Origin: a bacterium BMS3Abin11
GTDB lineage: Bacteria; Pseudomonadota; Gammaproteobacteria; BMS3Bbin11
Length of the DNA: 64,000 nucleotides
Assembly (NCBI GenBank): GCA_002897635.1
Contig: BDTD01000009.1
Coordinates: 54,754-118,753 of the forward strand
Reading direction: 5' to 3'
The notes under the pieces were generated by a model. It ran no database searches. It saw only the letters and a list, made by a program, of their open reading frames with translations, and had not been told where the DNA came from. Position numbers and translations under genes: made by a program. Within the stretch, counting starts at the first letter, position 1. Every line of letters starts with the position of its first letter. Positions 36,776 to 54,940 of the stretch are shown here, piece by piece.

Positions 36776-37642
36776 CTATTTCTCCGATGACACAGTTTGT
36801 CTTCCCTGATCAGTCCTGGCATAACTGAGATAATATTCTTTATAGGAAATAGGTTTGCTAATGCTAAACAGACACTCAAGTTTTATTAATACCTTTGATC
36901 TGTTGACATACATTAGATAATTAAGATATTTTTTGTTGTCCAGATCAGGATGCATAAAGCGTTCCTGACTGGTATCAATATCATACGGATGCAAATAGGT
37001 TGTTATCGGATCACCCAGTTTTAGATGATAACGAGCAGAATAGTTTATTATCGGATAGGGTATGACCCTGAAATATACCCCACCTGCCAGTGGTAGTCGA
37101 AGAAAAGGTATAGCGTGTAGAGTAATTGGTATTTCGTATATACCCTGAACATATTTTGGTTTACGGCCAAATTCTTTCCAGCCAAACAGTGGATTGGCTG
37201 CAGGTAACACTGAACTTGAATATTTGAAGCCAGATTCTGACAGGCATCTATAGGCCCATTGTGTTTGCTCGGTAAGTGAGAAGGTAGGTGCCCGGTATCC
37301 GATCACATCCTCTGCACCTGCAGTATACAATGAGTCAAGATTTCTCCTGACATCTTTAAGAAACTCTTCCGGTGTCTGTTTGTTTATTTGAATATGTTTA
37401 TCGCTATGACAGGCAATCTCATGACCATCTGCTATTATCTCTTTGATCAATGATGGGTATTTTCTCGCCACATTGCCGACGACAAAAAAAGTTGCCTTTG
37501 CATTATGCTGCTGCAGGAATTCCAGATATCGTTGAGTATTTTCAGGAACGCCCTCTCGATATGTGCTGCCATTTAATATCTGATCTCTAACGTCTTCCAG
37601 ATCAATGCTGAAAAGCAAATTCCCTTTATTTTTTCTGTTCAT
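36776..37642 (-). CDS. NodB-family polysaccharide deacetylase with DUF3473-like C-terminal region
   Basis: NodB motifs present: IDLED (Asp pair), HSDKH (His pair), YRAPTF (RxP). Confidence 0.75.
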   Translation of the reverse strand: MNRKNKGNLLFSIDLEDVRDQILNGSTYREGVPENTQRYLEFLQQHNAKATFFVVGNVARKYPSLIKEIIADGHEIACHSDKHIQINKQTPEEFLKDVRRNLDSLYTAGAEDVIGYRAPTFSLTEQTQWAYRCLSESGFKYSSSVLPAANPLFGWKEFGRKPKYVQGIYEIPITLHAIPFLRLPLAGGVYFRVIPYPIINYSARYHLKLGDPITTYLHPYDIDTSQERFMHPDLDNKKYLNYLMYVNRSKVLIKLECLFSISKPISYKEYYLSYARTDQGRQTVSSEK

Positions 37643-37693
37643 ATGGCCTTCAGCTATAACACGCTGTCGCTGTGAAAGAACGTAGGTTTGTTA

Positions 37694-38566
37694 TCAGTCT
37701 ACGCTACTCCTACGTATCAGGGACAGTTGTTCGGCAAGTAAGCCCAGCAAAAAAAACAATATTCCTGTAATGGTTAGAAGCAATGTACCGGCCTGGACAC
37801 CCTCACCTCTAAGCAGAAAGGGTAAACCCCAGATGATGCCGGCCAGAACAAAAATAATTGCAAGTGGTAGAAATATCCTGTTTGGATTAAATAATATAAC
37901 AATATTCAAAATCTCCAAAATTGTATCCAGTGCTGTCCTTGTATTTATAGTGCTAGTACCTGATATCCGGGACCTGATCTGTATGTCCTTCTCCAGTACA
38001 AGATGTTTTTGATTGATAAACACGAGAGTGATGATGTCGCTATATGCCATAGTATCCGGACATAAACGGATATATTTCTTGGCCAGATCAGATCTGTACA
38101 CTTTCATACCAGAGTTAAGATCAGTAATTTGAAAGGACATCAGTAATTTTGCAATACTACGAATCATGAATTTACCGAAACGTCGGTACCTGGAACCTTG
38201 ATGACTATCTCTCTTACCAATAACCATATCTGCATCAGTCACCATGAGATAATTAAACAACATTCCGATATCATCAAGAGAATGCTGTCCATCTGCATCA
38301 ACAGTGATCAGGAATTCTGTGTCAACCCTTTCAATGGCTGTCTTGATTGCGCTGCCATAGCCCCTGTTTATTTTGTGATGTATAACTGTCAGCATGTCAC
38401 CCTGATCAGCAGCATCAAGAATTTCCCCTGTAGTATCTGACGAGCCATCATTGACAACAATAAGCTTGTAACCATTTTTTCCGCAATACTCGCACATATC
38501 TTCAAGAAATGTAGGTAGCGACCCTTCTTCGTTGAATGCGGGAACAATTATCGTTAGATCTTTCAA
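37694..38566 (-). CDS. GT2 polyprenyl-phosphate sugar synthase (ArnC/GtrB/DPM1-like)
   Basis: IIVPAFNEEGSL...VVNDGSSD...DADGQH GT-A motifs plus two C-terminal TM helices, typical of Und-P-sugar synthases. Confidence 0.8.
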   Translation of the reverse strand: MKDLTIIVPAFNEEGSLPTFLEDMCEYCGKNGYKLIVVNDGSSDTTGEILDAADQGDMLTVIHHKINRGYGSAIKTAIERVDTEFLITVDADGQHSLDDIGMLFNYLMVTDADMVIGKRDSHQGSRYRRFGKFMIRSIAKLLMSFQITDLNSGMKVYRSDLAKKYIRLCPDTMAYSDIITLVFINQKHLVLEKDIQIRSRISGTSTINTRTALDTILEILNIVILFNPNRIFLPLAIIFVLAGIIWGLPFLLRGEGVQAGTLLLTITGILFFLLGLLAEQLSLIRRSSVD

Positions 38567-39088: not shown

Positions 39089-40903
39089 ATGTCTTTAAAT
39101 AACAAGTACGTCACCTTCCTGCTTTCTGTTTCGATATTTATCTTATTCTTTAGCTTTTTTTTTATTACATCTAATATTCTACCTCAGGGTGCAGGCCCAG
39201 ACTGGAAATCGAATACCGATGTAACAAAATTTATCTATGAAAATGGCAGGCTGGCAGTTCTCCCTGATGACGAAAAGGATTTGCACTTCACGGTTTATGG
39301 TGGCACGCGGGCACTAAGACCGCCCCTTTCCTATATCGTGTCCGCAGTTGCTGCAAAAGCTCTTGCATTCACCAATCTTGATTCATATGTGCTGTTTCGC
39401 AAAGGATCCGCACTTTTATGTGCCTTAGCCCTGGCTCTAACATTTTATGCTCTGAGTATTTACTTTAACAGTTATGCAATTGGGATTTTGGGCTCCACAA
39501 TTATAGGTCTAATGCCGCAATTCACTTTCATTGCTTCATATAATAATGATGACAGCGGTGCAATTTTCTCTGCCACACTTATGATTGCCGTGCTGGTTCG
39601 TATATACCGTTATGGGGCATCAAATACCAATGCAATTTTACTCGGCCTTGCTGGCGGACTAGTCGTGCTTTCAAAGATGACTGCATGGCTATTAATGCCA
39701 TCTGTCGTTCTATTTCTAATCATTTTCTTCCGGTCTCCTGTGCGCTCACTACTGCGTTACGCCTCCATTGCAGGAGTGGTCTTTATTCTAGCTGGCGGCT
39801 GGTGGTTTGCGTTTAACACCTATCACTATGGGATCGATGATCCACTGCTGAAAAAAATTACCACCACAGTAATAGAGCAGCACAGGCGTCTGCCACCGGG
39901 TTCAGGTGTAGGATTTGCCGCACAGGGAATAGGCTTTTATGAATTATTTGCTGAAAACTATAAAAATTTCCTCGGCGAAACGGCTAAGGCAACCATCGGT
40001 AATCTGGACTGGCTAAAGCTAAAAGTTGGCCCGCTACAGTACACTGTCTATCTGGGTATTTTCTTTTTTGCCCTGTTCTATTATTTTTTCAGCCTATCGG
40101 CATATCTGATAAAACGATTCAGGAATGTAACCGTAAATGATGAACATACCAGGCAGTTAATATTCGAATCACTGCTGCTGTTGATGATAGTTTTTCAGAT
40201 AACCATGTATACCTGGACCAATATCAATAATGATATACAGATACAGGGAAAATACATCATCCCTATTTTTCTTGCCATCCTGCTTTTATTCTTTTCCGGA
40301 ATATATCGATTACCGGGAGTGACCGCCGTTTCAATCAGGAAATTGTCTGAATCGGGTTTCCCTGTAAACGCTTCAAATACTGGCAGGTTTGGTGTATTTT
40401 TGGCAAGCCTGATGTTTATTGTCTATGTACACTGGGATGCATGGCAGAATTATATCATCCCATTTTATCAACCACCTGCGTATGATATAAAGCTGGGAGA
40501 ATTTCATTCTATTCCACTAAATTTAGATCTGAACCAGCGCGCAGATAATCTGGATATACGAGAAACCGGTGGAGGTATTGAGTATATTTCCACAGGTAAA
40601 GACCCAAAAGTCATCTTTAAAAAGGATATCTGCCAGAAGATTTCAACAACATCGATGTTATATCTTGAGTTTAATGCAAAGAATGCAGACACCCTCCAGT
40701 TCTTCATCGATGAAGGTGGAGGTTTTTCGGCGAATATTTCATCCACTGCTACTTATAAACAGGGAGACAACACCCTTTTGCTCCCAATTTCAGCTAACAA
40801 GTGTCAATATCTGCGTTTCGATCCATTTATCGAAAATGGGACATTCATCCTGAAGAAATTTAAGATTGCACCAATGACGATTGTCCCAAGACGAAAGAAT
40901 TAA
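39089..40903 (+). CDS. GT-C glycosyltransferase of the ArnT/PMT (GT39/GT83) type
   Basis: 604 aa. First-loop DDEKDLHF and RPPLSY motifs, about 12 TM helices, a C-terminal about 150-aa soluble domain. Divergent from the GT2-deacetylase operon. Contains a T9 tract near the 5' end. Confidence 0.7.
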   Translation: MSLNNKYVTFLLSVSIFILFFSFFFITSNILPQGAGPDWKSNTDVTKFIYENGRLAVLPDDEKDLHFTVYGGTRALRPPLSYIVSAVAAKALAFTNLDSYVLFRKGSALLCALALALTFYALSIYFNSYAIGILGSTIIGLMPQFTFIASYNNDDSGAIFSATLMIAVLVRIYRYGASNTNAILLGLAGGLVVLSKMTAWLLMPSVVLFLIIFFRSPVRSLLRYASIAGVVFILAGGWWFAFNTYHYGIDDPLLKKITTTVIEQHRRLPPGSGVGFAAQGIGFYELFAENYKNFLGETAKATIGNLDWLKLKVGPLQYTVYLGIFFFALFYYFFSLSAYLIKRFRNVTVNDEHTRQLIFESLLLLMIVFQITMYTWTNINNDIQIQGKYIIPIFLAILLLFFSGIYRLPGVTAVSIRKLSESGFPVNASNTGRFGVFLASLMFIVYVHWDAWQNYIIPFYQPPAYDIKLGEFHSIPLNLDLNQRADNLDIRETGGGIEYISTGKDPKVIFKKDICQKISTTSMLYLEFNAKNADTLQFFIDEGGGFSANISSTATYKQGDNTLLLPISANKCQYLRFDPFIENGTFILKKFKIAPMTIVPRRKN

Positions 40904-40924: not shown

Positions 40925-41398
40925 CTACTTTCTTTTATCCAGGAAGAATGTCTTTAACAAGCTTGAACATTCCTGCTGTAATACACCGGTCGTCACGGTG
41001 ACACGATGATTCAAATGTGGAGAATTCAATAAATTAAACACACTACCTGCCGATCCCGTGCGTGGATCAGGTGTTGCGATAACGATACGCCTGATTCTTG
41101 CTTGCACAATGGCACCTGCACACATTGGGCAAGGTTCAAGCGTGACATAGAGGGTGGTATCAGGTAAACGATAATTATTGAGCTGTTTTGCAGCATCACG
41201 TAAAGCGAGTATTTCTGCATGGGCAGTAGGGTCATCTGCTGATATTGGCTGGTTCCATCCTTGTCCGATGCATTGATTGTCAGAATTAACCAGCACCGCA
41301 CCAACCGGTACTTCTTCGTGCGCTGCTGCAATTTTTGCCAGCTCCCAGGCTTTGTTCATCCAGTCTAGGTCGATATCGTCACTCTCTTCTGGAAACAT
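40925..41398 (-). CDS. tadA: tRNA-specific adenosine deaminase
   Basis: HAEILALR...PCPMCAGA CDA zinc motifs. Starts at the internal MFPEESDD Met of the longer ORF. Confidence 0.9.
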   Translation of the reverse strand: MFPEESDDIDLDWMNKAWELAKIAAAHEEVPVGAVLVNSDNQCIGQGWNQPISADDPTAHAEILALRDAAKQLNNYRLPDTTLYVTLEPCPMCAGAIVQARIRRIVIATPDPRTGSAGSVFNLLNSPHLNHRVTVTTGVLQQECSSLLKTFFLDKRK

Positions 41399-41399
41399 C

Positions 41400-41745
41400 T
41401 TACTCCCACTCGAGATTATAAATAGCCCGACAAAGTCCATTACTAGCGCGGGTTTCCCAGTGGCCGATGGTGCGCGCCAGATGGGTAAGCTCGGCGCTGG
41501 TGGGCGCCTTGACCCAGCGGAACCGGGTGCTTCCATCGGAATGGTCAGTGTACACACCATCGAGGAACAACATATGGAAATGGATATTCAGATTGAGTGC
41601 CGAGCCAAACCGCTGGATGAGGGTGACCGCCCCGGTCCGGGCTGTCTTTTTTGTCAAGCCCGCTTTCTTGATCAGATGGGTGGCAATCACACGGTAGACA
41701 ATGCCGAGCACCCCGCCCGTGACGGCCGGGTGGATTACCAGGGTG
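41400..41745 (-). pseudogene. IS91-family (HUH Y2 rolling-circle) transposase internal fragment
   Basis: ...VYRVIATHLIKKAGLTKKTARTGAVTLIQRFGSALNLNIHFHMLFLDGVY... matches my memory of the IS91-family catalytic region. It is truncated at both ends. High G+C begins here. Confidence 0.55.
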
Positions 41746-42682
41746 CCCGACTGTTGCTGAGGCACAGATCTACCAGGTCGTCGAGGCGCGCGGTCCCGGC
41801 ACACATCACGGTATCCGCGCCACCCCAGTAAATCTTTACGCCGCCGTCGTCATCCGCGACTGCACCGCAGGTAAAAACGACGTTGTGTACATAGCCCGTG
41901 ATCTCCCAGGGATCCTCTGGGGCTAGCACCCATTCATCCGAAACGCCGATAATCTTCGCCGGATTGGCAAGATCGTGCAGCGCCACGCCGAGACGATAGA
42001 CTGCCCCGTCCATGGTCTCGAATACCCCGTGGTAGATGCTGAGCCAGCCGCGTTCGGTGCGGATCGGTGTCGCACCGGGACCGATCTTCGACTCGTCCCA
42101 GTGATACGGCACCGGCTTCATCACCACCTCGGAATCGCCCCAGTGCACCAGGTCCGGCGACCATGACAGCCACACGGACCAGGGGCTGATCTCCGAATGC
42201 GGTCGGTCCAGGCGGGCGTAGCGGCCGTTGAACCGCTGCGGAAAGATAACGACATTGCGCATGTCCGCCTGGGTGATCAACGCCACGCGCTCAATGGATC
42301 GGAAATCACAGGTCCTGGCCAGCCCGATACGCACACCGTGGCGCGAATAGGCGCTGTAGGTAATCAGGTATTCCCCGTCTATACACGAGATTCTGGGGTC
42401 CTCCACCCCAAAAGCCTCGTATTCACCAAAGGCGCCATCTGTCGACGGCACCAGGAACGGCTCCGGGCCGACCGTAAATTTGAAGCCGTCCTCACTCTCG
42501 GCGATGCCGATGATCGACCGGCCGCTACGCAGGTGGGATCGAAACAGCATGATGGTGCGGCCGTCGTATTGTGTCATGCCGGCGTTGTGCACGGTCTCCA
42601 CCGGGTAGGGGATGTCGTCCCGCGTAAGGATCGGGTTGTCCGGACAGCGTTCGATGATTGGCGGTGGTTTAGCTGCGGTCAT
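41735..42682 (-). CDS. GH130 family glycoside hydrolase / beta-mannoside phosphorylase-like
   Basis: Five-bladed beta-propeller GH130/DUF377 signature (NPIL...DIPY, FNAG, EDPRI, YSAY, PWE). The start ATG is preceded by GGAGG. Overlaps the upstream gene's stop by 14 nt. Confidence 0.75.
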   Translation of the reverse strand: MTAAKPPPIIERCPDNPILTRDDIPYPVETVHNAGMTQYDGRTIMLFRSHLRSGRSIIGIAESEDGFKFTVGPEPFLVPSTDGAFGEYEAFGVEDPRISCIDGEYLITYSAYSRHGVRIGLARTCDFRSIERVALITQADMRNVVIFPQRFNGRYARLDRPHSEISPWSVWLSWSPDLVHWGDSEVVMKPVPYHWDESKIGPGATPIRTERGWLSIYHGVFETMDGAVYRLGVALHDLANPAKIIGVSDEWVLAPEDPWEITGYVHNVVFTCGAVADDDGGVKIYWGGADTVMCAGTARLDDLVDLCLSNSRAPW

Positions 42683-44015
42683 AGTCATCCTCCAGCCGGA
42701 TAATATCGTCTTCCCCGAAATAATCTCCCATCTGCACCTCGACCAGAACCAGCGGGATATCACCGGGGTTCGTGATCCTGTGCACTGCACCCTTTGGGAC
42801 ATCCACGGACTGCCCCGGCCTGAGCGGGATTTCCTGATCCCCCACGGTGACCAGCGCTTCGCCACTGACCACGGTCCAGTGCTCGGCCCGGCGCCGGTGC
42901 TTCTGCAGGCTCAGCCGCTGGCCCGGTTGGACGATGATCTCCTTGATTTTGTGATCATCCCGCTCGAGCAGGTTTTCATAGTGTCCCCACGGCCGATAGT
43001 TCTCCCGCTGGTCGAGGATGCTCTGGTAGACCTCCAGGTAGGCGCGTGCCATGTGCCGGCTGGTAAAGCGCTGTTCCACCTCGTCCCGGCAGGCGCGCCG
43101 GTCGAGCGAATCAATCCTGTCCACCGCCTGTACCGCGGCGTTCACATCGGCCACGATGAATCCCGTCTGGCCGTCGCGAATGAGTTCCGGCATTGAGCCC
43201 CGCCCATAGGCGATCACCGGCGTGCCACAGGCCATGGACTCGACCACGCTCAACCCGAACGGTTCGTCGAAGTGAATCAGGTGCAACAACCCCAGCGCAC
43301 CGCCCAGAAGTTCCTGTCTCTTCTCCGGCCCGACGGAGCCAACATATTCCACCATGGATCCATCGATGTGCGGCTCGACCTGTTCCTGGAAGTATGCCTC
43401 GTCCTGCACGATCCCGGCAATCACCAGCCGTAGTCCGGCCCTGCGCGCCACCTCAATGGCATCGTGGACACCCTTATGGTGGTGGATACGCCCGAAGAAC
43501 AACAGGTAGTCTCCCGCGTCTTCGCGGTAGGGGAATTGTGCGAGATCGATGCCATGATGGATGGTTGCGGCGTAATCGAGTTCACAGCTCCTGTCGGCCT
43601 CACTAATGGCCACATAATAGGTGCTGTCATTGTACTTTTTATAAACGGGCAAAATCGACGGCGAAGAGAATCCATGGATCGTCGTGACCAGCGGTGTAGG
43701 GGTAAAACCGCTGTAACTGAGCGGCAGAAAATCGAACTGGTTGTGGATGAGGTCGAACTCATCCGCCCGCCTGAACACCTCGGCGATATGCAGGCATTCC
43801 CAGACCTTGGGATCAATCGAGGGGTCTTCTGAGTAAGGGCGTTCACAAACCCAGGAAAGTTTACCACGGGTAATGGAATCCCCGGTCGCAAACAGTGTCA
43901 CATCGACACCCATCGCCACCAGCTGTTCTGTCAGGAGGCTGACCACATTTTCCCACGGCCCGTAATGGCGTGGGGGTGTGCGCCAGGACAAGGGACTCAA
44001 CATCGCAATCTTCAT
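42669..44015 (-). CDS. GT4 glycosyltransferase fused to a C-terminal mannose-6-phosphate-isomerase-type cupin
   Basis: GT-B/GT4 core (E..GG motif region, EPFGLSVVESMACGTPVIA) followed by the cupin HRRRAEHWTVVSGEALVTVGDQEIPLRPGQSVDVPKGAVHRITN. Confidence 0.7.
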   Translation of the reverse strand: MKIAMLSPLSWRTPPRHYGPWENVVSLLTEQLVAMGVDVTLFATGDSITRGKLSWVCERPYSEDPSIDPKVWECLHIAEVFRRADEFDLIHNQFDFLPLSYSGFTPTPLVTTIHGFSSPSILPVYKKYNDSTYYVAISEADRSCELDYAATIHHGIDLAQFPYREDAGDYLLFFGRIHHHKGVHDAIEVARRAGLRLVIAGIVQDEAYFQEQVEPHIDGSMVEYVGSVGPEKRQELLGGALGLLHLIHFDEPFGLSVVESMACGTPVIAYGRGSMPELIRDGQTGFIVADVNAAVQAVDRIDSLDRRACRDEVEQRFTSRHMARAYLEVYQSILDQRENYRPWGHYENLLERDDHKIKEIIVQPGQRLSLQKHRRRAEHWTVVSGEALVTVGDQEIPLRPGQSVDVPKGAVHRITNPGDIPLVLVEVQMGDYFGEDDIIRLEDDYDRS

Positions 44016-44327
44016 AAAAGAGGCCTGCGTGAACACCTGCGCGCGATCCACGCGCCAGCGGGGTGTTGTTATGATCAGGAACAAATCTGATAGCACAGTA
44101 ACACGATTTGCCTGACGGGCTACAATAACAAAACACCTGACAAAACGAAACCACCGCCCATTCAGATAAGGCTTGGACAGGGTGGAAATTTTACCCTTGC
44201 TGCCGCTAAAGATAGTATAGTGTGTTGAAACAAAAATAGTCTAATCTATTGCCAATTCAACTATAATCCGATATAGCCTGCCACGCAGACCGAACCAGGC
44301 GCAGAGGGCTTGTACCACGTGGAAGCA

Positions 44328-45812
44328 ATGAAAATGGAAAGCAGACCTGACCCCACCACTCCACTCGCGCGGCGCAAGTCGATCGTGATGAAGGCGAAGA
44401 TCAGTCGCGTCATTACCCGGCCGTATCTGCCGTCCGGTGAAGAACGCATCCAAAAAGTTATCCAGCGGGTGTTGAGCCTGGACGAGAATGAGGCGGATAC
44501 GGTGCTGGAAACCCTCTTGCAGGATTTTTCCCACCGCCACCGCTACTTCAGGGAGACCCTGGAGCAAAATTTTGCACGGGTAGCTGACTTTTTGCCGGAT
44601 ATCGATCAGGTATCGAAGCAACGGCGGCTTCTGATCGGCGCGTACTTTACCGCGGAATACTCAGTGGAGGCGGCGGCGTTGTTCAATCCCTCAATCGTTC
44701 AGGTTCCGAACCAGGAGGCGGATCCTGAAGGCACCTGCCGGTTTGTTATGAGCTTCCGTGCCACTGGTGAAGGCCACATCTCCTCCATCGAGTTTCGCAG
44801 CGGGGTTATCGATACCAACAACGATATCTACTTCGATGGCCTGAGCGACTACGTAGCAACCCCGGAAATCCACCCCAACCCAAGCTATGACCGGCACCTG
44901 TTTCGGCTGAAACTCCAGGAGATGGGGGCGAATAATGCGGTAACGCACCAGCTTCTAAACAGGCTGCCGGACAATTTCACCTTCAACGATCTGCAGGGAA
45001 AGATCGCCGAACTCCAGAACAACGGCCAGTTTCCGCCACAGGAGCAGACGGATGCCATTGACATGGCAATGTGGCTGGCGCAATCCAATTACCAGATTTT
45101 GTTTCGCAAGGAACACGCAATTTCCGAGCGGGTGATCTTTCCCGTGTCGGAATCCGAGCGCAAGGGGATCGAGGATGCCCGCTTTGTACGTTTCGTCGAC
45201 GACGACGGCACGGCGGTCTACTACGCCACCTATACCGCGTACAACGGAGAGACGATCCTGCCGCAACTCATCGAGACCCGCGATTTCCTCTCCTTCAAGC
45301 ACATTACGCTGAATGGAGCCCAGGTACAGGGCAAGGGCATGGCCCTGTTCCCGAGAAAGATTGGGGGCAACTACGTGATGCTGTCGCGCCAGGATGGTGA
45401 GAACAATACCATCATGTTCTCGGACAACCTGCACTTCTGGCAGCAGGCCCAGATTCTTCAGGAGCCTGAGTTCCCCTATGAATTCATACAGATGGGCAAC
45501 AGCGGCTCACCCATCGAGATGCCCGAAGGCTGGCTGGTCGTGACCCACGGGGTGGGTCCGATGCGGACCTACAGCCTCGGCATCGAGTTGCTCGACCTGG
45601 ACGACCCGACCCGGATCATCAACCGGATTGAGGAGCCGATCCTGGTGCCGAATGCGTATGAGCGGGAGGGGTATGTCCCGAACGTGGTTTACAGTTGTGG
45701 CGCACTCATCCACCAGGACGAATTGATCATCCCCTACGCCTCGGGCGACCAGCGCTGCGGCATAGCAACCCTGCAGCTACCACAGCTGATGGCCAGGCTG
45801 ACAGCACGGTAG
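44328..45812 (+). CDS. GH130-like beta-propeller protein with an uncharacterised about 250-aa N-terminal extension
   Basis: C-terminal about 240 aa shows GH130/DUF377-like blocks (GIEDARFVRFVDDDG...YYATYTAYNG, GWLVVTHGVG, PNVVYSCGA). I recognise no family for the N-terminal half. The ATG at 44328 follows a GGAAG RBS; the listed ORF starts at an upstream TTG. Confidence 0.6.
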   Translation: MKMESRPDPTTPLARRKSIVMKAKISRVITRPYLPSGEERIQKVIQRVLSLDENEADTVLETLLQDFSHRHRYFRETLEQNFARVADFLPDIDQVSKQRRLLIGAYFTAEYSVEAAALFNPSIVQVPNQEADPEGTCRFVMSFRATGEGHISSIEFRSGVIDTNNDIYFDGLSDYVATPEIHPNPSYDRHLFRLKLQEMGANNAVTHQLLNRLPDNFTFNDLQGKIAELQNNGQFPPQEQTDAIDMAMWLAQSNYQILFRKEHAISERVIFPVSESERKGIEDARFVRFVDDDGTAVYYATYTAYNGETILPQLIETRDFLSFKHITLNGAQVQGKGMALFPRKIGGNYVMLSRQDGENNTIMFSDNLHFWQQAQILQEPEFPYEFIQMGNSGSPIEMPEGWLVVTHGVGPMRTYSLGIELLDLDDPTRIINRIEEPILVPNAYEREGYVPNVVYSCGALIHQDELIIPYASGDQRCGIATLQLPQLMARLTAR

Positions 45813-45828: not shown

Positions 45829-48198
45829 CTATTCCGACGATACTTTCTGAACATCAAGCCGGGTGGGCTCTTCCTCCGGTGTAACCCGATCCCAGCTGCG
45901 GTGGTTATAGACGGCGAGCAGCGCCATGAGCCAGCAAAGCGTGGACTCTGCGCCCTGATTTTCATTCGCGCCCTGCGCTTCCAGCCCGTCCCGGCAGCCG
46001 CCGGTCGCATAATCGCAGAGCGGAACCCCCAGATCGTTCTCGCCTTGGTACCAGTTGAGACAACGGTAGGCATAGGTAATCCATTCCTCATCCCGCGTGC
46101 AGTTGAATGCCTCGATACAGGCGTCCACCATCGCGGCCGCCTCGATGGGTTGTTGATCGAATCGCGCTTTTTCGCCGCCTCTGGGAAACCAGCCGTGATT
46201 GCCGATAGCGACAAAGTGCCGGCCCTTCTCATCGGTCTGAACCTGCTTCAACCAGTCGAGAGAGCGCAACCCCATCTCCAGCATCTCGCTGTCGGGAAGC
46301 CACTGCCCAGACAGCAGTAAAGCCTGTGGCAACCGGGCATTGTCGTAGGTCAGGATGTTGTCACACCAGGGCCAGTCTTCGCTGGCGCACCCCAAGGGCA
46401 CTTCCTGCGGGGCGAAATCCCTGAACCGCTGCATCAGTCGTTCCGAGAGTATCTTGCGCATCATTTTCGCGCGGCTGTCCCCGCTGTAGCGGCCCAGATA
46501 GGCATGAATACCGATAATGGCGAAGGCAATCGCCCGTGGGTGGGTGAAATGTTCGGTGGCGTCCAGTGCACGATGGAACAGGTCGACCGAAAAACCCACC
46601 TGCCCCTTATCCCGCCCCAATGCCACTGCGACGCCCAGCCCCCACACCGCACGACCGTGGGAGTCCTCCGAACCTGTTCCCTCTAGCCAGTAGCGATCAT
46701 AGGACATAAAGTTGCGGAAGCGGCCGGTCTGGTCATTGAAGGCGTGACCCAGAAAACTCAGATAAGTGGCGGCAAGGCCGCTTTGTGCTGAATCCAGAGG
46801 CTGGAGGTCCTGTAGCGTGACCGCGACGATCAACGCGCGGGCATTATCGTCCACGCAATAGCCGTGTGTCCGGTCTGCAACCGTGTACTTGGCGTGTTGC
46901 AACATACCCGTGTCATCGGTCATCCGGCGTAAATAGTCCAGCTTGATCTCCGGTAGCCGTTGCTGGCGTAGTCCGAGGGTCTCCAGCCCGCGCCTGGGTA
47001 CGTTCTTCCTCAATCGCTGTCGTTTGGCTTCTGCAAAGGTGTCGAGATAGCGGCGGCCTACATCACTCCAGACCATTTTGCGACCGTATTGATAGGCCCT
47101 CTCCTGGATGGCGCGGCACTCATCGGGATGATCCAGGAGGTCGATGACTTCCCGCGCCAGAGCGGCCTGATCCCGGAATGGAACCAGCCTGCCCCGATCA
47201 TCAGCGAGCAACTCCTGAGCGTGCCAGAAGGGTGTGGATATCACCGCTTTGCCCATCCCAAGCGCATAGGCAAGCGTGCCGGAAATAATCTGCGCCTCAT
47301 TCAGGTACGGAGTGACATAAATATCTGCCACACCGATAAACTCCAGCAGATCTTCGTCGGCAACGAAACGATCATGAAAAACAATGTGCTCCGAAACGCC
47401 GAGTTCTTTTGCACGCCTGTGAAGGCTGTTTCTGTAATCCTCCCCATCTTCCATCTTAAGGTGCGGATGGGTGGCGCCTACCACCATATAGATGACCTGC
47501 GGGTGGGCCTTCACGATCTCCGGCAAGGCATCTATGACCACCTCAATGCCCTTGCCCGGCGAAAGCAGGCCGAAGGTCAGGATGACTTTCTTTCCGGATA
47601 CGCCGAACTTGTCCTTGTAGGCATCGGATTTGACAAACGGCACGTCAGGGATGCCATGATGTATAAGGACAATCTTCTCCTCCGGCACCTGGTAGATATC
47701 GCGCAGGAATTCGACTGAGCGTTCACTCATCACCACCAGCCGGTCTGAGAACTCGGCAAGTTGCATCATGATGTGCCGGTCCTGAAGGTTCGGATCCTTC
47801 AGGATTGTGTGCAGAGTCGTCACAACCGGCATATTGAGATTACGCAGCAGCTCGATAATAAAGCTGCCCCGCTTGCCACCAAAAATACCGTATTCATGCT
47901 GGAGACAGATCACATCCACCTGGTTAAGGTTGCATAAGTCGGCCGCCAGGCTGTATTCGTTCAGTTGAGACTGGTTGATCTCGAAGCGCACCTGAGACGG
48001 GTAGGAATAGCCTGTTGGCCGGTCGTTCATTGCGACCGCCCAACAGGCTTTGTCCGGTGCATTCAGCGCGATGGATTCAAGCAGGTGGGTGGTGAACGTG
48101 GCGATACCACACTGCCGGGGGAGGTGGTTGCCGATGAGGACGATCGACTTGAGAGCCTCCCATTCTGGTCTTGAGCCTGTCGTGCCGAAGTTATCCAT
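45829..48198 (-). CDS. 789-aa fusion: N-terminal GT4 glycosyltransferase plus C-terminal about 400-aa alpha/alpha-barrel glycoside-hydrolase-like domain
   Basis: N-terminal half has GT4 features (GG-loop, FGLLSPGKGIEV, E..G..V.ST). The C-terminal half (HGYCVDDNARAL..., ENQGAEST) tentatively resembles (alpha/alpha)6 hydrolases. Confidence 0.6.
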   Translation of the reverse strand: MDNFGTTGSRPEWEALKSIVLIGNHLPRQCGIATFTTHLLESIALNAPDKACWAVAMNDRPTGYSYPSQVRFEINQSQLNEYSLAADLCNLNQVDVICLQHEYGIFGGKRGSFIIELLRNLNMPVVTTLHTILKDPNLQDRHIMMQLAEFSDRLVVMSERSVEFLRDIYQVPEEKIVLIHHGIPDVPFVKSDAYKDKFGVSGKKVILTFGLLSPGKGIEVVIDALPEIVKAHPQVIYMVVGATHPHLKMEDGEDYRNSLHRRAKELGVSEHIVFHDRFVADEDLLEFIGVADIYVTPYLNEAQIISGTLAYALGMGKAVISTPFWHAQELLADDRGRLVPFRDQAALAREVIDLLDHPDECRAIQERAYQYGRKMVWSDVGRRYLDTFAEAKRQRLRKNVPRRGLETLGLRQQRLPEIKLDYLRRMTDDTGMLQHAKYTVADRTHGYCVDDNARALIVAVTLQDLQPLDSAQSGLAATYLSFLGHAFNDQTGRFRNFMSYDRYWLEGTGSEDSHGRAVWGLGVAVALGRDKGQVGFSVDLFHRALDATEHFTHPRAIAFAIIGIHAYLGRYSGDSRAKMMRKILSERLMQRFRDFAPQEVPLGCASEDWPWCDNILTYDNARLPQALLLSGQWLPDSEMLEMGLRSLDWLKQVQTDEKGRHFVAIGNHGWFPRGGEKARFDQQPIEAAAMVDACIEAFNCTRDEEWITYAYRCLNWYQGENDLGVPLCDYATGGCRDGLEAQGANENQGAESTLCWLMALLAVYNHRSWDRVTPEEEPTRLDVQKVSSE

Positions 48199-51759: not shown

Positions 51760-53337
51760 TCACTCCCATTCAATAGTGGCAGGAGGTTTATCTGAAATGT
51801 CATAACTAACACGGGCGATACCATCGATTTCGTTAATAATTCGACGGGACACCAGATCAAGAAAATCGTAAGGCAGATGTGCCCAACGTGCTGTCATGAA
51901 ATCGATGGTTTCTACAGCTCTGAGAGCAACAACATACTGATATCGACGGTTATCACCGACTACGCCTACAGATTTGACTGGTAAAAAGACCGTGAATGCC
52001 TGTGATACCTTGTCATAGAGGTCATGGTTATAAAGTTCTTCGATAAATATATAGTCTGCCCGGCGCAGAAGTTCTGCAAATTCCTTTTTTACTTCTCCGA
52101 GTATACGCACACCCAGTCCGGGACCGGGGAATGGATGCCGAAAGACCATCTCGGTGGGCAAACCCAGCTCGACACCCAGTTTACGTACTTCGTCCTTGAA
52201 CAGCTCTCTTAGTGGTTCGAGCAATTCAAGGTTCATATCATCCGGCAGGCCGCCGACATTATGATGTGACTTGATTACTTTGGCCTTTCCCGTTTTTGAA
52301 CCTGCAGACTCAATAACATCGGGGTAGATTGTCCCCTGGGCAAGCCACTTAACATTCCTTAACTTACTGGCTTCTTCATCAAACACCTCAATAAAGGTGT
52401 GACCGATGATTTTTCGCTTTTTTTCCGGGTCGGCTTCACCTGCCAGGCCACTCAGAAACCGCTCCTCGGCATCAACACGAATCACCCGCACACCCATATG
52501 CTCGGCAAAAGTGGCTATCACCTGATCACCTTCATTTAGGCGTAGTAGTCCGTTATCGACAAAAACGCAGGTCAGCCTGTCGCCTATAGCCTTGTGTAAT
52601 AGGGCGGCAACTACTGAGGAATCAACACCACCAGAAAGACCAAGCAGAACTTCATCATCACCAACCTGGCGACGTATGTTTTCGATGCTGTCCTGTACAA
52701 TATTCGCCGGGTTCCATAATGCCTCGCAGCCACAGATATCGTGCACAAAACGGGCAAGTATACGACTACCCTGTTGAGTATGAGTCACTTCAGGATGGAA
52801 TTGCACACCATAGTAATGACGTGATTCATCTGCCATCCCTGCCAGCGGAGCACTATCCGTAGTAGCAATGACTGAAAACCCTGGGGGTAGTCTGGAAACC
52901 CGATCACCATGACTCATCCAGACATCCAGCAAACCATAGCCTTCTTCCGAAGTATGATCTTCAATATCTTTGAGTAGCTGAGAGTGACCACGCGCCCGTA
53001 TCTGGGCATAGCCATATTCATGATGAGATGAGCTTTCCACTTCTCCACCCAGTTGAGCCGCCATGGTCTGCATGCCATAGCAAATACCCAGTACTGGCAT
53101 GCAGGAATCAAATACCAGTTGACTGATCTTAGGTGTATCGCCTTCAATAACACTCTCCGGCCCACCAGACAAAATATATCCCTTAGCGGCAAACTCTTTT
53201 ATATGAATCTCATCAACATCGTAGGGAAAAATTTCGCAATAAACACCTGCCTCCCTGACTCGCCTGGCAATTAACTGCGTATATTGAGAACCAAAATCGA
53301 GAATAAGAATCCTGTCGGAATGGATATTGTTACTCAT
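51760..53337 (-). CDS. guaA: GMP synthase (glutamine-hydrolysing)
   Basis: [20 protein letters not shown], a GATase Cys-His-Glu triad region, PP-loop SGGVDSSV, 525 aa. Confidence 0.95.
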
Positions 53338-53380
53338 GATTCAGGTATATCTGGAAGGCGGCATTATGATGATGGAAGTA

Positions 53381-54940
<1,560 letters not shown>

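Follow-up and report, generated by a model that had tools for sequence, protein, structure and literature searches.

The window, a stretch of 64,000 nucleotides from contig BDTD01000009.1 of bacterium BMS3Abin11, encodes a GH130 protein of unusual length, and the question is what fills its N-terminal half, which domain profiles pass over, and what the whole protein would do. The earlier note had described it as a GH130 propeller in the C-terminal half behind a single extension of about 250 residues that resembled nothing known. The gene and its possible starts are as follows.

44328..45812, + strand: long GH130 gene, 494 aa plus stop (ORF list, homologue N-termini, Pfam GH130 at 112 bits)
44310, 44319 and 44334, + strand: other in-frame starts of this gene (TTG, GTG and ATG, respectively)
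44321..44325, + strand: GGAAG, Shine-Dalgarno-like, read from the sequence; 2 nt 5' of ATG 44328 and 8 nt 5' of ATG 44334

In the ORF list the frame (44310/44328..45812) runs uninterrupted on the + strand. The TTG at 44310, previously called the annotated start, merely opens the longest ORF, as the window carries no annotation. An ATG is favoured over it because the N-termini of 120 homologues mostly read MK[T/M]E (corresponding to ATG 44328) or ME (ATG 44334). To that extent the earlier preference for an ATG was sound, but the ribosome-binding argument offered for ATG 44328 suits ATG 44334 better, given the GGAAG spacing. Promoter and terminator scans at the locus returned weak consensus matches only. 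The protein has no hydrophobic N-terminus, signal peptide or transmembrane segment.

More than 8,000 homologues were found, the best 120 of them 80-99% identical across the full length, and the N-terminal half as sole query retrieves 1,506 clusters at 50% identity; a chance ORF is thereby excluded. The family spans more than 10 phyla; its culturable carriers include Geothrix fermentans DSM 14018, Desulfobacter vibrioformis DSM 8776 and Rhodopirellula sp. SWK7. No characterised member was found in the literature searched, which likewise held nothing specific on the long form, on YPO2471 or on GH130 in Acidobacteria, Planctomycetes or Verrucomicrobia. The NCBIfam equivalog models for β-1,2-mannobiose phosphorylase score 148.6 against a cut-off of 450 and 131.7 against 550, so far under both thresholds that the protein is no orthologue of the characterised enzymes. 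It is a real but moderately novel variant of a known sugar phosphorylase, not an enzyme of a new type.

The anatomy was resolved on an AF2 model built from a 26-sequence alignment (pLDDT 91.9, pTM 0.89); a single-sequence AlphaFold model with pLDDT 39 was discarded. Four segments can be distinguished.

44328..44648, + strand: N-terminal accessory module, residues 1-107; a β-hairpin (15-32) and four helices (38-106) in the AF2 secondary structure
44649..44840, + strand: GH130 closing strand and blade 1, residues 108-171, with Asn120 (-1 subsite), Arg144 (+1 subsite) and a family-specific GEGHxSS motif
44841..45113, + strand: helical insertion of about 90 aa, residues 172-262, between strand D of blade 1 and strand A of blade 2 (AF2 secondary structure)
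45114..45809, + strand: GH130 blades 2-5, residues 263-494 (Pfam, residue alignments to Teth514_1788 and Uhgb_MS, invariance in 96 sequences)
45171-45176, 45333-45335 and 45387-45389, + strand: codons of Glu282-Asp283, Lys336 and Arg354 in blades 2-5
45546-45548 and 45747-45749, + strand: codons of His407 and Asp474 in blades 2-5

The propeller assigned earlier to the C-terminal half is confirmed by PF04041, which matches residues 264-489 with 112.3 bits (cut-off 26). This match begins only at profile position 82 and runs to 316 of 320. When residues 173-258 are removed, it lengthens to profile positions 27-316 and the score rises to 120.3 bits. Consistently, Foldseek aligns the model over about 386 columns with a 298-aa target, leaving a gap of about 88 columns at the insertion, and the superposition covers 281 of the 298 residues of a full GH130; the five-bladed β-propeller is complete. 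With hhalign, Asn120 pairs with the canonical HNAG motif and Arg144 with the LFR motif, the equivalence of Asn120 resting on hhalign and the structural span within a low-confidence stretch of the alignment. These results contradict a single extension lying outside GH130. The modules at 1-107 and 172-262 flank a genuine, highly conserved blade 1; besides being extended at its front, the catalytic domain is thus split in two.

The statement that the N-terminal half matches nothing holds at the level of sequence searches: as a single sequence, residues 1-262 have no match in Pfam, NCBIfam or the PDB sequences. It fails for residues 108-171, whose mean pairwise identity (63%) is like that of the core, compared with 35% in the N-terminal module and 32% in the insertion. 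The truly unassigned parts are thus residues 1-107 and 172-262, two separate modules and not one domain; the peptide quoted in the earlier note corresponds to residues 26-91. A 25-member profile of residues 1-262 gave nothing better against the PDB than E 0.065 (a DNA glycosylase) and about 0.3 (calmodulin-like), both treated as noise, and Pfam scans of pieces of this half and of the 25 members one by one yielded scattered single hits only. Relatives outside the family are recognisable for none of the roughly 200 residues of the add-on modules. The searches revealed no known carbohydrate-binding or regulatory domain in the N-terminal half, so the outcome against which the earlier note had staked its reading did not arise. 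Within the modules, Arg70 and His71 are present in 96 of 96 sequences, Arg27 and Lys195 vary little or not at all, and most of the conserved positions are hydrophobic (F192, F217, L222, L250, L102 and F107). Domain databases under-call the catalytic domain by missing blade 1, and an automatically assigned label would read as a truncated GH130 beside a ‘domain of unknown function’.

The active site follows the published rule for GH130 β-1,2 phosphorylases, D / R,H / R,E,K,D (PMC7660257 Table 2), with D283 / R354,H407 / R144,E282,K336,D474, each in all 96 homologues. Asp283 and Asp474 were placed by residue-level alignments; together with Asn120 they are present in 95-96 of the 96 sequences. Arg354 and His407 take the positions of the UhgbMP phosphate pair R168/H231, which are basic and not acidic, as expected of phosphorylases (PMC7660257). 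The β-1,2-type Glu/Lys pair is equally invariant (96/96), Glu282 standing beside the catalytic Asp and Lys336 at the position of UhgbMP R150. Conservation of such residues had been proposed as the means to tell phosphorylase from hydrolase; Asp283, Arg354/His407 and Glu282/Lys336 prove invariant throughout, and this points to a phosphorylase. One phosphate contact departs from the pattern: the equivalent of Uhgb_MS Arg242 is Gln, Lys or Leu in the family, here Q388. Many further basic residues are invariant across the 96 sequences, and these could mean that the donor differs or that the acceptor is anionic.

The neighbouring genes are as follows.

45829..48198, - strand: partner GT4 (PimA-like) with a YPO2471-like C-terminal domain, 789 aa (Pfam, NCBIfam, PDB searches)
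42669..44015, - strand: GT4 fused to a mannose-6-phosphate isomerase (PMI) cupin (Pfam, NCBIfam, synteny), likely start MKIAML
41735..42688, - strand: canonical 317-aa GH130 with a Glu/Arg pair (β-1,3 type; Pfam 183 bits, NCBIfam, synteny)

Of the 51 loci whose flanks are complete, 50 have the GT4-YPO2471-like gene (~780 aa), whose C-terminal domain has no Pfam model, next to the long GH130. In 54 of 68 loci it immediately precedes the long GH130 on the same strand, separated from it by a median of 89 nt. Such loci occur in more than 10 phyla with unrelated outer flanks. The GT4-PMI cupin gene, divergent from the long GH130, and the canonical GH130 make up the optional half of a four-gene module. 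Across loci no conserved linkage to transporters or secreted glycosidases was found; the linkage is to glycosyltransferases. The PMI cupin on the neighbouring GT4 and a HAD/phosphomannomutase-like domain fused to one long GH130 (P0192) are links to mannose-phosphate metabolism.

Taken together, we consider it fairly probable, judging from signature residues, topology and gene linkage, that the protein is a cytoplasmic β-1,2-mannoside phosphorylase-type GH130 in which an add-on cap restricts the acceptor and the substrate is made by the partner GT4. The predicted chemistry is inverting phosphorolysis, or reverse phosphorolysis, of a β-1,2-mannoside. Asp283 would act as proton donor via the sugar O3, Arg354 and His407 would hold phosphate, Asn120 and Asp474 the -1 mannose, and Arg144, Glu282 and Lys336 would shape the +1 site; the product would be α-mannose-1-phosphate. 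The AF2 model has the active-site residues where A-strands begin and B-strands end, which would place the D1-A2 connection, and the insertion within it, on the active-site face. The insertion lies in the loop that leads to Glu282-Asp283, some 20 residues ahead of Asp283. From there it may cap the active site and limit or select the acceptor, either alone or jointly with the N-terminal module, in which Arg70-His71 is invariant. Gene linkage suggests as substrate an endogenous glycoside from the co-encoded GT4-YPO2471-like protein, and the acceptor is probably the product of this partner. About one-third of lineages would add to this system a canonical GH130 and another GT4, the latter not always carrying a mannose-6-P isomerase domain.

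A close parallel is found in Thermoanaerobacter sp. X-514, whose Teth514_1788 and Teth514_1789 (PDB 9FJ8, 7FIP) are GH130_6 β-1,2-oligomannan/β-1,2-mannobiose phosphorylases. They have in common with the long form the catalytic Asp, the -1 Asn and Asp (Asn28, Asp92 and Asp281 being the -1 subsite/catalytic reference set of Teth514_1788), the Arg/His phosphate pair, the Glu/Lys pair and a short L2, and their gene cluster likewise includes a GT4 and an enzyme of the GDP-mannose pathway (PMC4264767). However, they are single-module propellers of about 300 aa, whereas the long form carries 107 aa more in front and 90 aa more inside, replaces one phosphate-contacting Arg with Gln and adds family-specific invariant polar residues. 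The Thermoanaerobacter cluster also contains an ABC importer and a GH5, in contrast to the long-GH130 module with its lack of a conserved transporter.

For the action proposed for the insertion, the nearest precedent is the 48-aa lid loop of the GH130_4 β-1,2-mannobiose phosphorylases Uhgb_MS and Lin0857 (PDB 9ERH, 5B0P), which sits on blade 1 at the active-site face, limits acceptor size and touches the +1/+2 sugars through an Arg (PMC12814180). The insertion, predicted to be on the same face, is much larger and shows no sequence similarity to the lid. The lid is a B-C loop of blade 1 (Uhgb_MS 53-100), whereas the insertion is helical, follows strand D and comes with an N-terminal module; in our model strand C (152-161) directly follows the strand of Arg144 (137-146), leaving no GH130_4-type lid there.

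The add-ons might instead serve oligomerisation or docking, with the GT4-YPO2471-like partner as one conceivable ligand, on an enzyme with ordinary β-1,2-mannoside phosphorylase specificity; we regard this as possible, if on the unlikely side, and it is compatible with a cap, the two not being exclusive. The low identity of the add-ons (32-35% against 63% in the core), their mostly hydrophobic conserved positions and the strict gene pairing, which would suit a physical complex, agree with such a role. In GH130, N-terminal extensions and loops are known to serve dimer-to-hexamer assembly (BfMGP, RaMP1). Dimer modes have been discussed for the family (PMC12814180). Against docking as the function stand the (near-)invariant Arg70-His71, Arg27 and Lys195, more typical of ligand contacts, and the predicted entry of the insertion on the active-site face close to the catalytic Asp.

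Unlikely, too, is a protein that acts mainly as a GDP-mannose-dependent β-mannosyltransferase, building a β-mannoside on the partner GT4 product and not degrading it. Its models would be GT108 MTP1/2 or the side reaction known from Uhgb_MS and Teth514_1788. In its favour are the consistent linkage to glycosyltransferases, with neither transporters nor secreted glycosidases linked, and loop L2, which is short as in Teth514_1788 and leaves room for GDP-Man (PMC12814180). The Arg242 equivalent is lost, the extra invariant Arg, His and Lys could hold a diphosphate, and some glycosyltransferase activity occurs in all tested GH130 β-1,2 phosphorylases. However, that activity is weak and its physiological significance is doubtful, the Arg354/His407 pair that defines phosphorylases is invariant, and the phosphomannomutase-like fusion fits turnover of Man1P equally well.

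A hydrolase, that is a β-mannosidase like the GH130_3 proteins BT3780 and BACOVA_03624, is highly improbable: Glu282 beside the catalytic Asp and Lys336 are common to β-1,2-mannosidases (PMC4599007) and the BT3780 NCBIfam model gives a weak match (27 bits), but hydrolases have carboxylates where Arg354/His407 are invariant, the long GH130 carries no signal peptide, and the nearest structures and profiles are all phosphorylases. Hardly tenable is one unbroken, self-standing domain of about 250 aa with a carbohydrate-binding or regulatory role ahead of a truncated or half GH130, for although the Pfam and PDB sequence searches see GH130 from residue 264 only, the near-complete superposition, the missing profile part restored by splicing out the insertion, and the core-like conservation of residues 108-171, which bear the -1 Asn and +1 Arg, already contradict it.

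Two further candidates were set aside. MggA/MggS came from overlapping taxa (MggA is a 530-aa mannosylglucosylglycerate synthase), and was dropped because these synthases are defined as GT4-fold Leloir α-mannosyltransferases (MggA being a GT4 according to PMC3736172), the target being a GH130 propeller. Lac161_ORF10, a DUF377 ‘β-galactosidase’ from a soil cosmid, has canonical length and an unrelated gene context and is thus irrelevant.

Within GH130, meta-nodes UC2, UC5, UC8 and UC9 (Li et al. 2020; now CAZy subfamilies) are uncharacterised, contain non-gut sequences only and were predicted as ‘GPs-β-1-2’ on this D / R,H / R,E,K,D signature; membership of the long family in one of these nodes is very likely. 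The enzymes of GH130 have been described as essentially single-module propellers, its phosphorylases as >99% monomodular, and neither a split domain nor an N-terminal module is mentioned (PMC7660257).

A large, very conserved split-domain subfamily tied to one unusual glycosyltransferase points to an unassigned mannoside pathway in free-living bacteria. Conceptually, the precedent for an endogenous, self-contained mannoside module is the mannogen cycle of the Leishmania GT108 mannosyltransferase/phosphorylases (PDB 2B4W fold), a cytoplasmic β-1,2-mannoside cycle on Man1P and GDP-Man; these proteins belong to another CAZy family, however, share about 10-12% identity, and lack both accessory modules and a GT4 partner. 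We know of no bacterial equivalent of mannogen that has been shown. As a speculation that we hold to be quite unlikely, the long GH130 and its obligate GT4-YPO2471-like partner, with the second GT4/GH130 where present, could form a self-contained cytoplasmic cycle that makes and remobilises an endogenous β-1,2-mannoside, a bacterial counterpart of mannogen across more than 10 phyla, in which the add-ons and the invariant Arg-His would recognise the primer. Were this so, the mannoside could be a reserve or stress solute on an anionic primer, widespread in environmental bacteria. GH130 enzymes already serve as tools for β-mannoside synthesis, and the long GH130-GT4 gene pair is a well-defined target for biochemistry.

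The long GH130 (494 aa, 44328-45812 (+), residues numbered from ATG 44328) is, on well-supported anatomy, a complete GH130 propeller, but a split one. The earlier note had seen GH130 blocks in the C-terminal half only, which is right at the level of sequence searches: Pfam Glyco_hydro_130 matches only residues 264-489 (profile positions 82-316 of 320, 112.3 bits), NCBIfam models for beta-1,2-mannobiose phosphorylase match the same region far under their equivalog cut-offs, and the sequence alignment to GH130 enzymes in PDB begins at about residue 269. Its N-terminal half without recognisable relative also stands for such searches, as residues 1-262 had no match as a single sequence against PDB, as separate pieces against Pfam, as a 25-member family profile against PDB (best E 0.065) or in a member-by-member Pfam scan.

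From a 26-sequence alignment, AlphaFold produced a confident model with mean pLDDT of 91.9 and pTM of 0.89 (a single-sequence prediction gave pLDDT 39). Its secondary structure comprises:

residues 15-32, hairpin
residues 38-106, four helices
residues 108-112, 117-125, 137-146, 152-161 and 167-169, strands
residues 172-262, mostly helical stretch
up to residue 483, four further four-stranded blades

Four observations together show that residues 108-171 are part of the propeller. Foldseek alignments of the model cover 384-386 columns against a 296-302-residue target, a span to be expected of a match that begins around residue 108 and crosses a gap of some 88 residues. When residues 173-258 were spliced out, the Pfam match widened to profile positions 27-316 and rose from 112.3 to 120.3 bits. 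In a global profile-profile alignment with canonical GH130 neighbours, the spliced family has its FNPS (Asn120) on HNAG and its SFRA (Arg144) on LFRS; confidence is low around that stretch, yet the placement is consistent with the structure. Finally, residues 108-171 have a mean pairwise identity of 63% across 96 sequences drawn from many phyla, the same as the core (263-494), against 35% and 32% for residues 1-107 and 172-262, respectively. The proposed single N-terminal extension of 250 aa is thereby contradicted: with residues 108-171 assigned to the propeller, the part without known domain is two modules, an N-terminal one (1-107) and an insertion (172-262), flanking propeller residues.

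The published criteria for a phosphorylase are a proton-donor Asp and an Arg/His phosphate pair (Li et al. 2020; PMC7660257, Table 2), with no second carboxylate and no signal peptide (PMC7660257); at the +1 subsite, Glu/Lys denotes beta-1,2, Glu/Arg beta-1,3 and Tyr/Arg beta-1,4 linkages (PMC7660257, Table 2). Residue-level alignments to Teth514_1788 and Uhgb_MS (numbering per PMC12814180 and PMC4264767) gave the following correspondences:

Asp283, proton donor
Arg354 and His407, phosphate pair
Arg144, Glu282, Lys336 and Asp474, +1 and -1 subsites
Asn120, -1 subsite

Each of these residues is kept in 95-96 of the 96 sequences, which, on the question of catalytic Asp and phosphate-binding residues raised in the earlier note, points to a phosphorylase rather than a hydrolase. 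No signal peptide or membrane segment was detected (hydrophilic N-terminus, top 19-residue hydrophobicity window 1.22). By the published rule the protein carries the 'GP beta-1,2' signature (PMC7660257), and its predicted chemistry is read off this complete set of residues. The main cellular activity may be phosphorolysis, reverse phosphorolysis or nucleotide-sugar transfer. Like Teth514_1788, the family has a short loop L2, which gives space for GDP-mannose (PMC12814180). Unlike Uhgb_MS, in which Arg242 contacts phosphate or diphosphate, it has Gln, Lys or Leu at that position. Also distinct from the characterised GH130 enzymes is a set of family-specific invariant polar residues (Arg70-His71, Glu110, Gln129, Arg138, Glu148, His150, Ser152 and Arg413); Arg27, Lys195, Arg343 and Arg446 are nearly invariant in the 96 sequences.

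The active-site face of propellers is generally formed by B-C loops and D-to-next-A connections. The same follows for the model, in which A-strand beginnings hold Asn120, Asp283 and Lys336, and B-strand ends hold Arg144, Arg354 and His407. Since the insertion is the D1-to-A2 connection, ending about 20 residues before Glu282-Asp283, we infer from the model that it must emerge on the active-site face. The closest mechanistic parallel for covering the active site is the lid of GH130_4 enzymes, 48 residues long, which closes the pocket to di- and trisaccharides, with Arg88 contributed to the +1/+2 sugars (PMC12814180). That lid is a B-C loop, and thus a different loop from the one holding the insertion, but it belongs to the same blade and face, and on this ground the most economical reading of the insertion would be a cap or lid over the active site. 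For the N-terminal module, a role at a ligand or at the catalytic site is favoured by the invariant Arg70-His71, while an interface role would equally fit, as conservation is otherwise low and the conserved positions are hydrophobic.

The long GH130 is clearly a real gene, with more than 8,000 matches among database proteins. The best 120 share 80-99% identity along the whole sequence, each being about 500 aa long. Residues 1-262 alone retrieved 1,506 clusters at 50% identity (964 with E <= 1e-10), in which complete members have 480-505 aa. Public names are only 'glycoside hydrolase family 130 protein' or 'GH43/DUF377'. As read from the sequence, one ORF extends from TTG 44310 to the stop at 45810-45812 (+), with alternative in-frame starts:

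44319 (+), GTG
44328 (+), ATG
44334 (+), ATG

TTG 44310 had been called the annotated start; the window has no annotation and this is only the longest-ORF start. The preference for an ATG was supported: of the 120 closest homologues, most have MK(T/M)E as N-terminus, matching ATG 44328, others start at the next ME (ATG 44334), and conservation is absent upstream, all of which favours an ATG. The ribosome-binding motif GGAAG invoked for ATG 44328 is present (44321-44325), but it lies 2 nt before that codon and 8 nt before ATG 44334, and therefore suits the latter better. The two products differ by two residues, with function unaffected.

The gene is surrounded by:

45829-48198 (-), PimA-like GT4 of 789 aa with a C-terminal domain of ~390 aa (GT4-X), tail to tail with the long GH130
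42669-44015 (-), GT4 fused to a type-II mannose-6-phosphate isomerase cupin, divergent from the long GH130
41735-42688 (-), canonical GH130 of 317 aa with a Glu/Arg pair, following the GT4-cupin gene

The C-terminal domain of GT4-X has no Pfam model; its sole PDB relative is YPO2471 (7TEM; profile E 5.9e-18), an uncharacterised Yersinia 'putative exported protein'. By its Glu/Arg pair, the canonical GH130 would be of the beta-1,3-mannoside phosphorylase type. The beginning of its reading frame shares 20 nt with the end of the GT4-cupin gene upstream of it, suggesting that the two are translationally coupled. Just outside this four-gene module are a 604-aa protein with a weak PMT_2 (membrane glycosyltransferase) match (39089-40903 (+)) and a tRNA-adenosine-deaminase-like gene (40925-41560 (-)), and farther out guaA and guaB (51760-54934) and a GT2 and polysaccharide-deacetylase pair (36776-38566); none of them is conserved beside the module in other genomes.

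A related metagenome contig of 344 kb carries the module in different surroundings. Scanning GTDB species genomes gave at least 80 loci with a long GH130, and the following counts refer to those listed. They belong to Gammaproteobacteria, Desulfobacterota, Acidobacteriota, Verrucomicrobiota, Planctomycetota, Bacteroidota, Ignavibacteria, Spirochaetota, Fibrobacter, Anaerolineae, Gastranaerophilales and others, with cultured carriers including Geothrix fermentans, Desulfobacter vibrioformis and Rhodopirellula sp. SWK7. Where each flank extends for at least 2.5 kb (51 loci), GT4-X is present in 50; it is co-directional and directly upstream in 54 of 68 loci (median gap 89 nt). The complete four-gene set occurs in at least 27 loci, the cupin fusion in 8 of 36 GT4 neighbours, and the outer genes vary from phylum to phylum. 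No conserved transporter or secreted glycosidase was found near the gene among these loci. Synteny, unrelated outer flanks, the lack of a conserved transporter and the fusions together indicate a self-contained, cytoplasmic, mannose-phosphate-linked module with GT4-X and the long GH130 as its core.

The nearest characterised enzymes, the Thermoanaerobacter beta-1,2-mannoside phosphorylases, are single-module; they too lie near a GT4, together with a GDP-mannose enzyme (PMC4264767), but their cluster includes an importer (PMC4264767), and no conserved transporter accompanies the loci listed here. The nearest conceptual precedent is the endogenous beta-1,2-mannoside cycle of Leishmania mannogen and GT108 enzymes. 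GH130 has been described as >99% monomodular, and several of its non-gut meta-nodes were predicted to be beta-1,2 phosphorylases and never characterised (PMC7660257); the long-GH130 family probably belongs to one of these. The split domain, the two add-on modules and the GT4-X pairing were not described in the GH130 literature searched. The long GH130 is a genuine, widespread and uncharacterised architectural variant of GH130. These findings overturn nothing in current understanding; the gene pair is an assay target for CAZyme work.

Two rare fusions were seen, one with a HAD/phosphomannomutase-like domain at the N-terminus of a long GH130 (P0192, 751 aa) and another with a response-regulator receiver domain at the C-terminus (P0208, 622 aa). 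Archaea-binned contigs of a Promethearchaeota MAG (L017) and a Methanomassiliicoccales MAG (L043) encode long GH130 proteins of 49-56% identity, the former with the whole four-gene module, through either horizontal transfer or mis-binning. In Rhodopirellula sp. SWK7, an extra GH130 ORF (L059:4416-5633) directly upstream of the GT4-X/long GH130 pair matches Pfam only from profile position 82 (protein residue 164) onward; this could be a further GH130 whose N-terminal part lacks a model.
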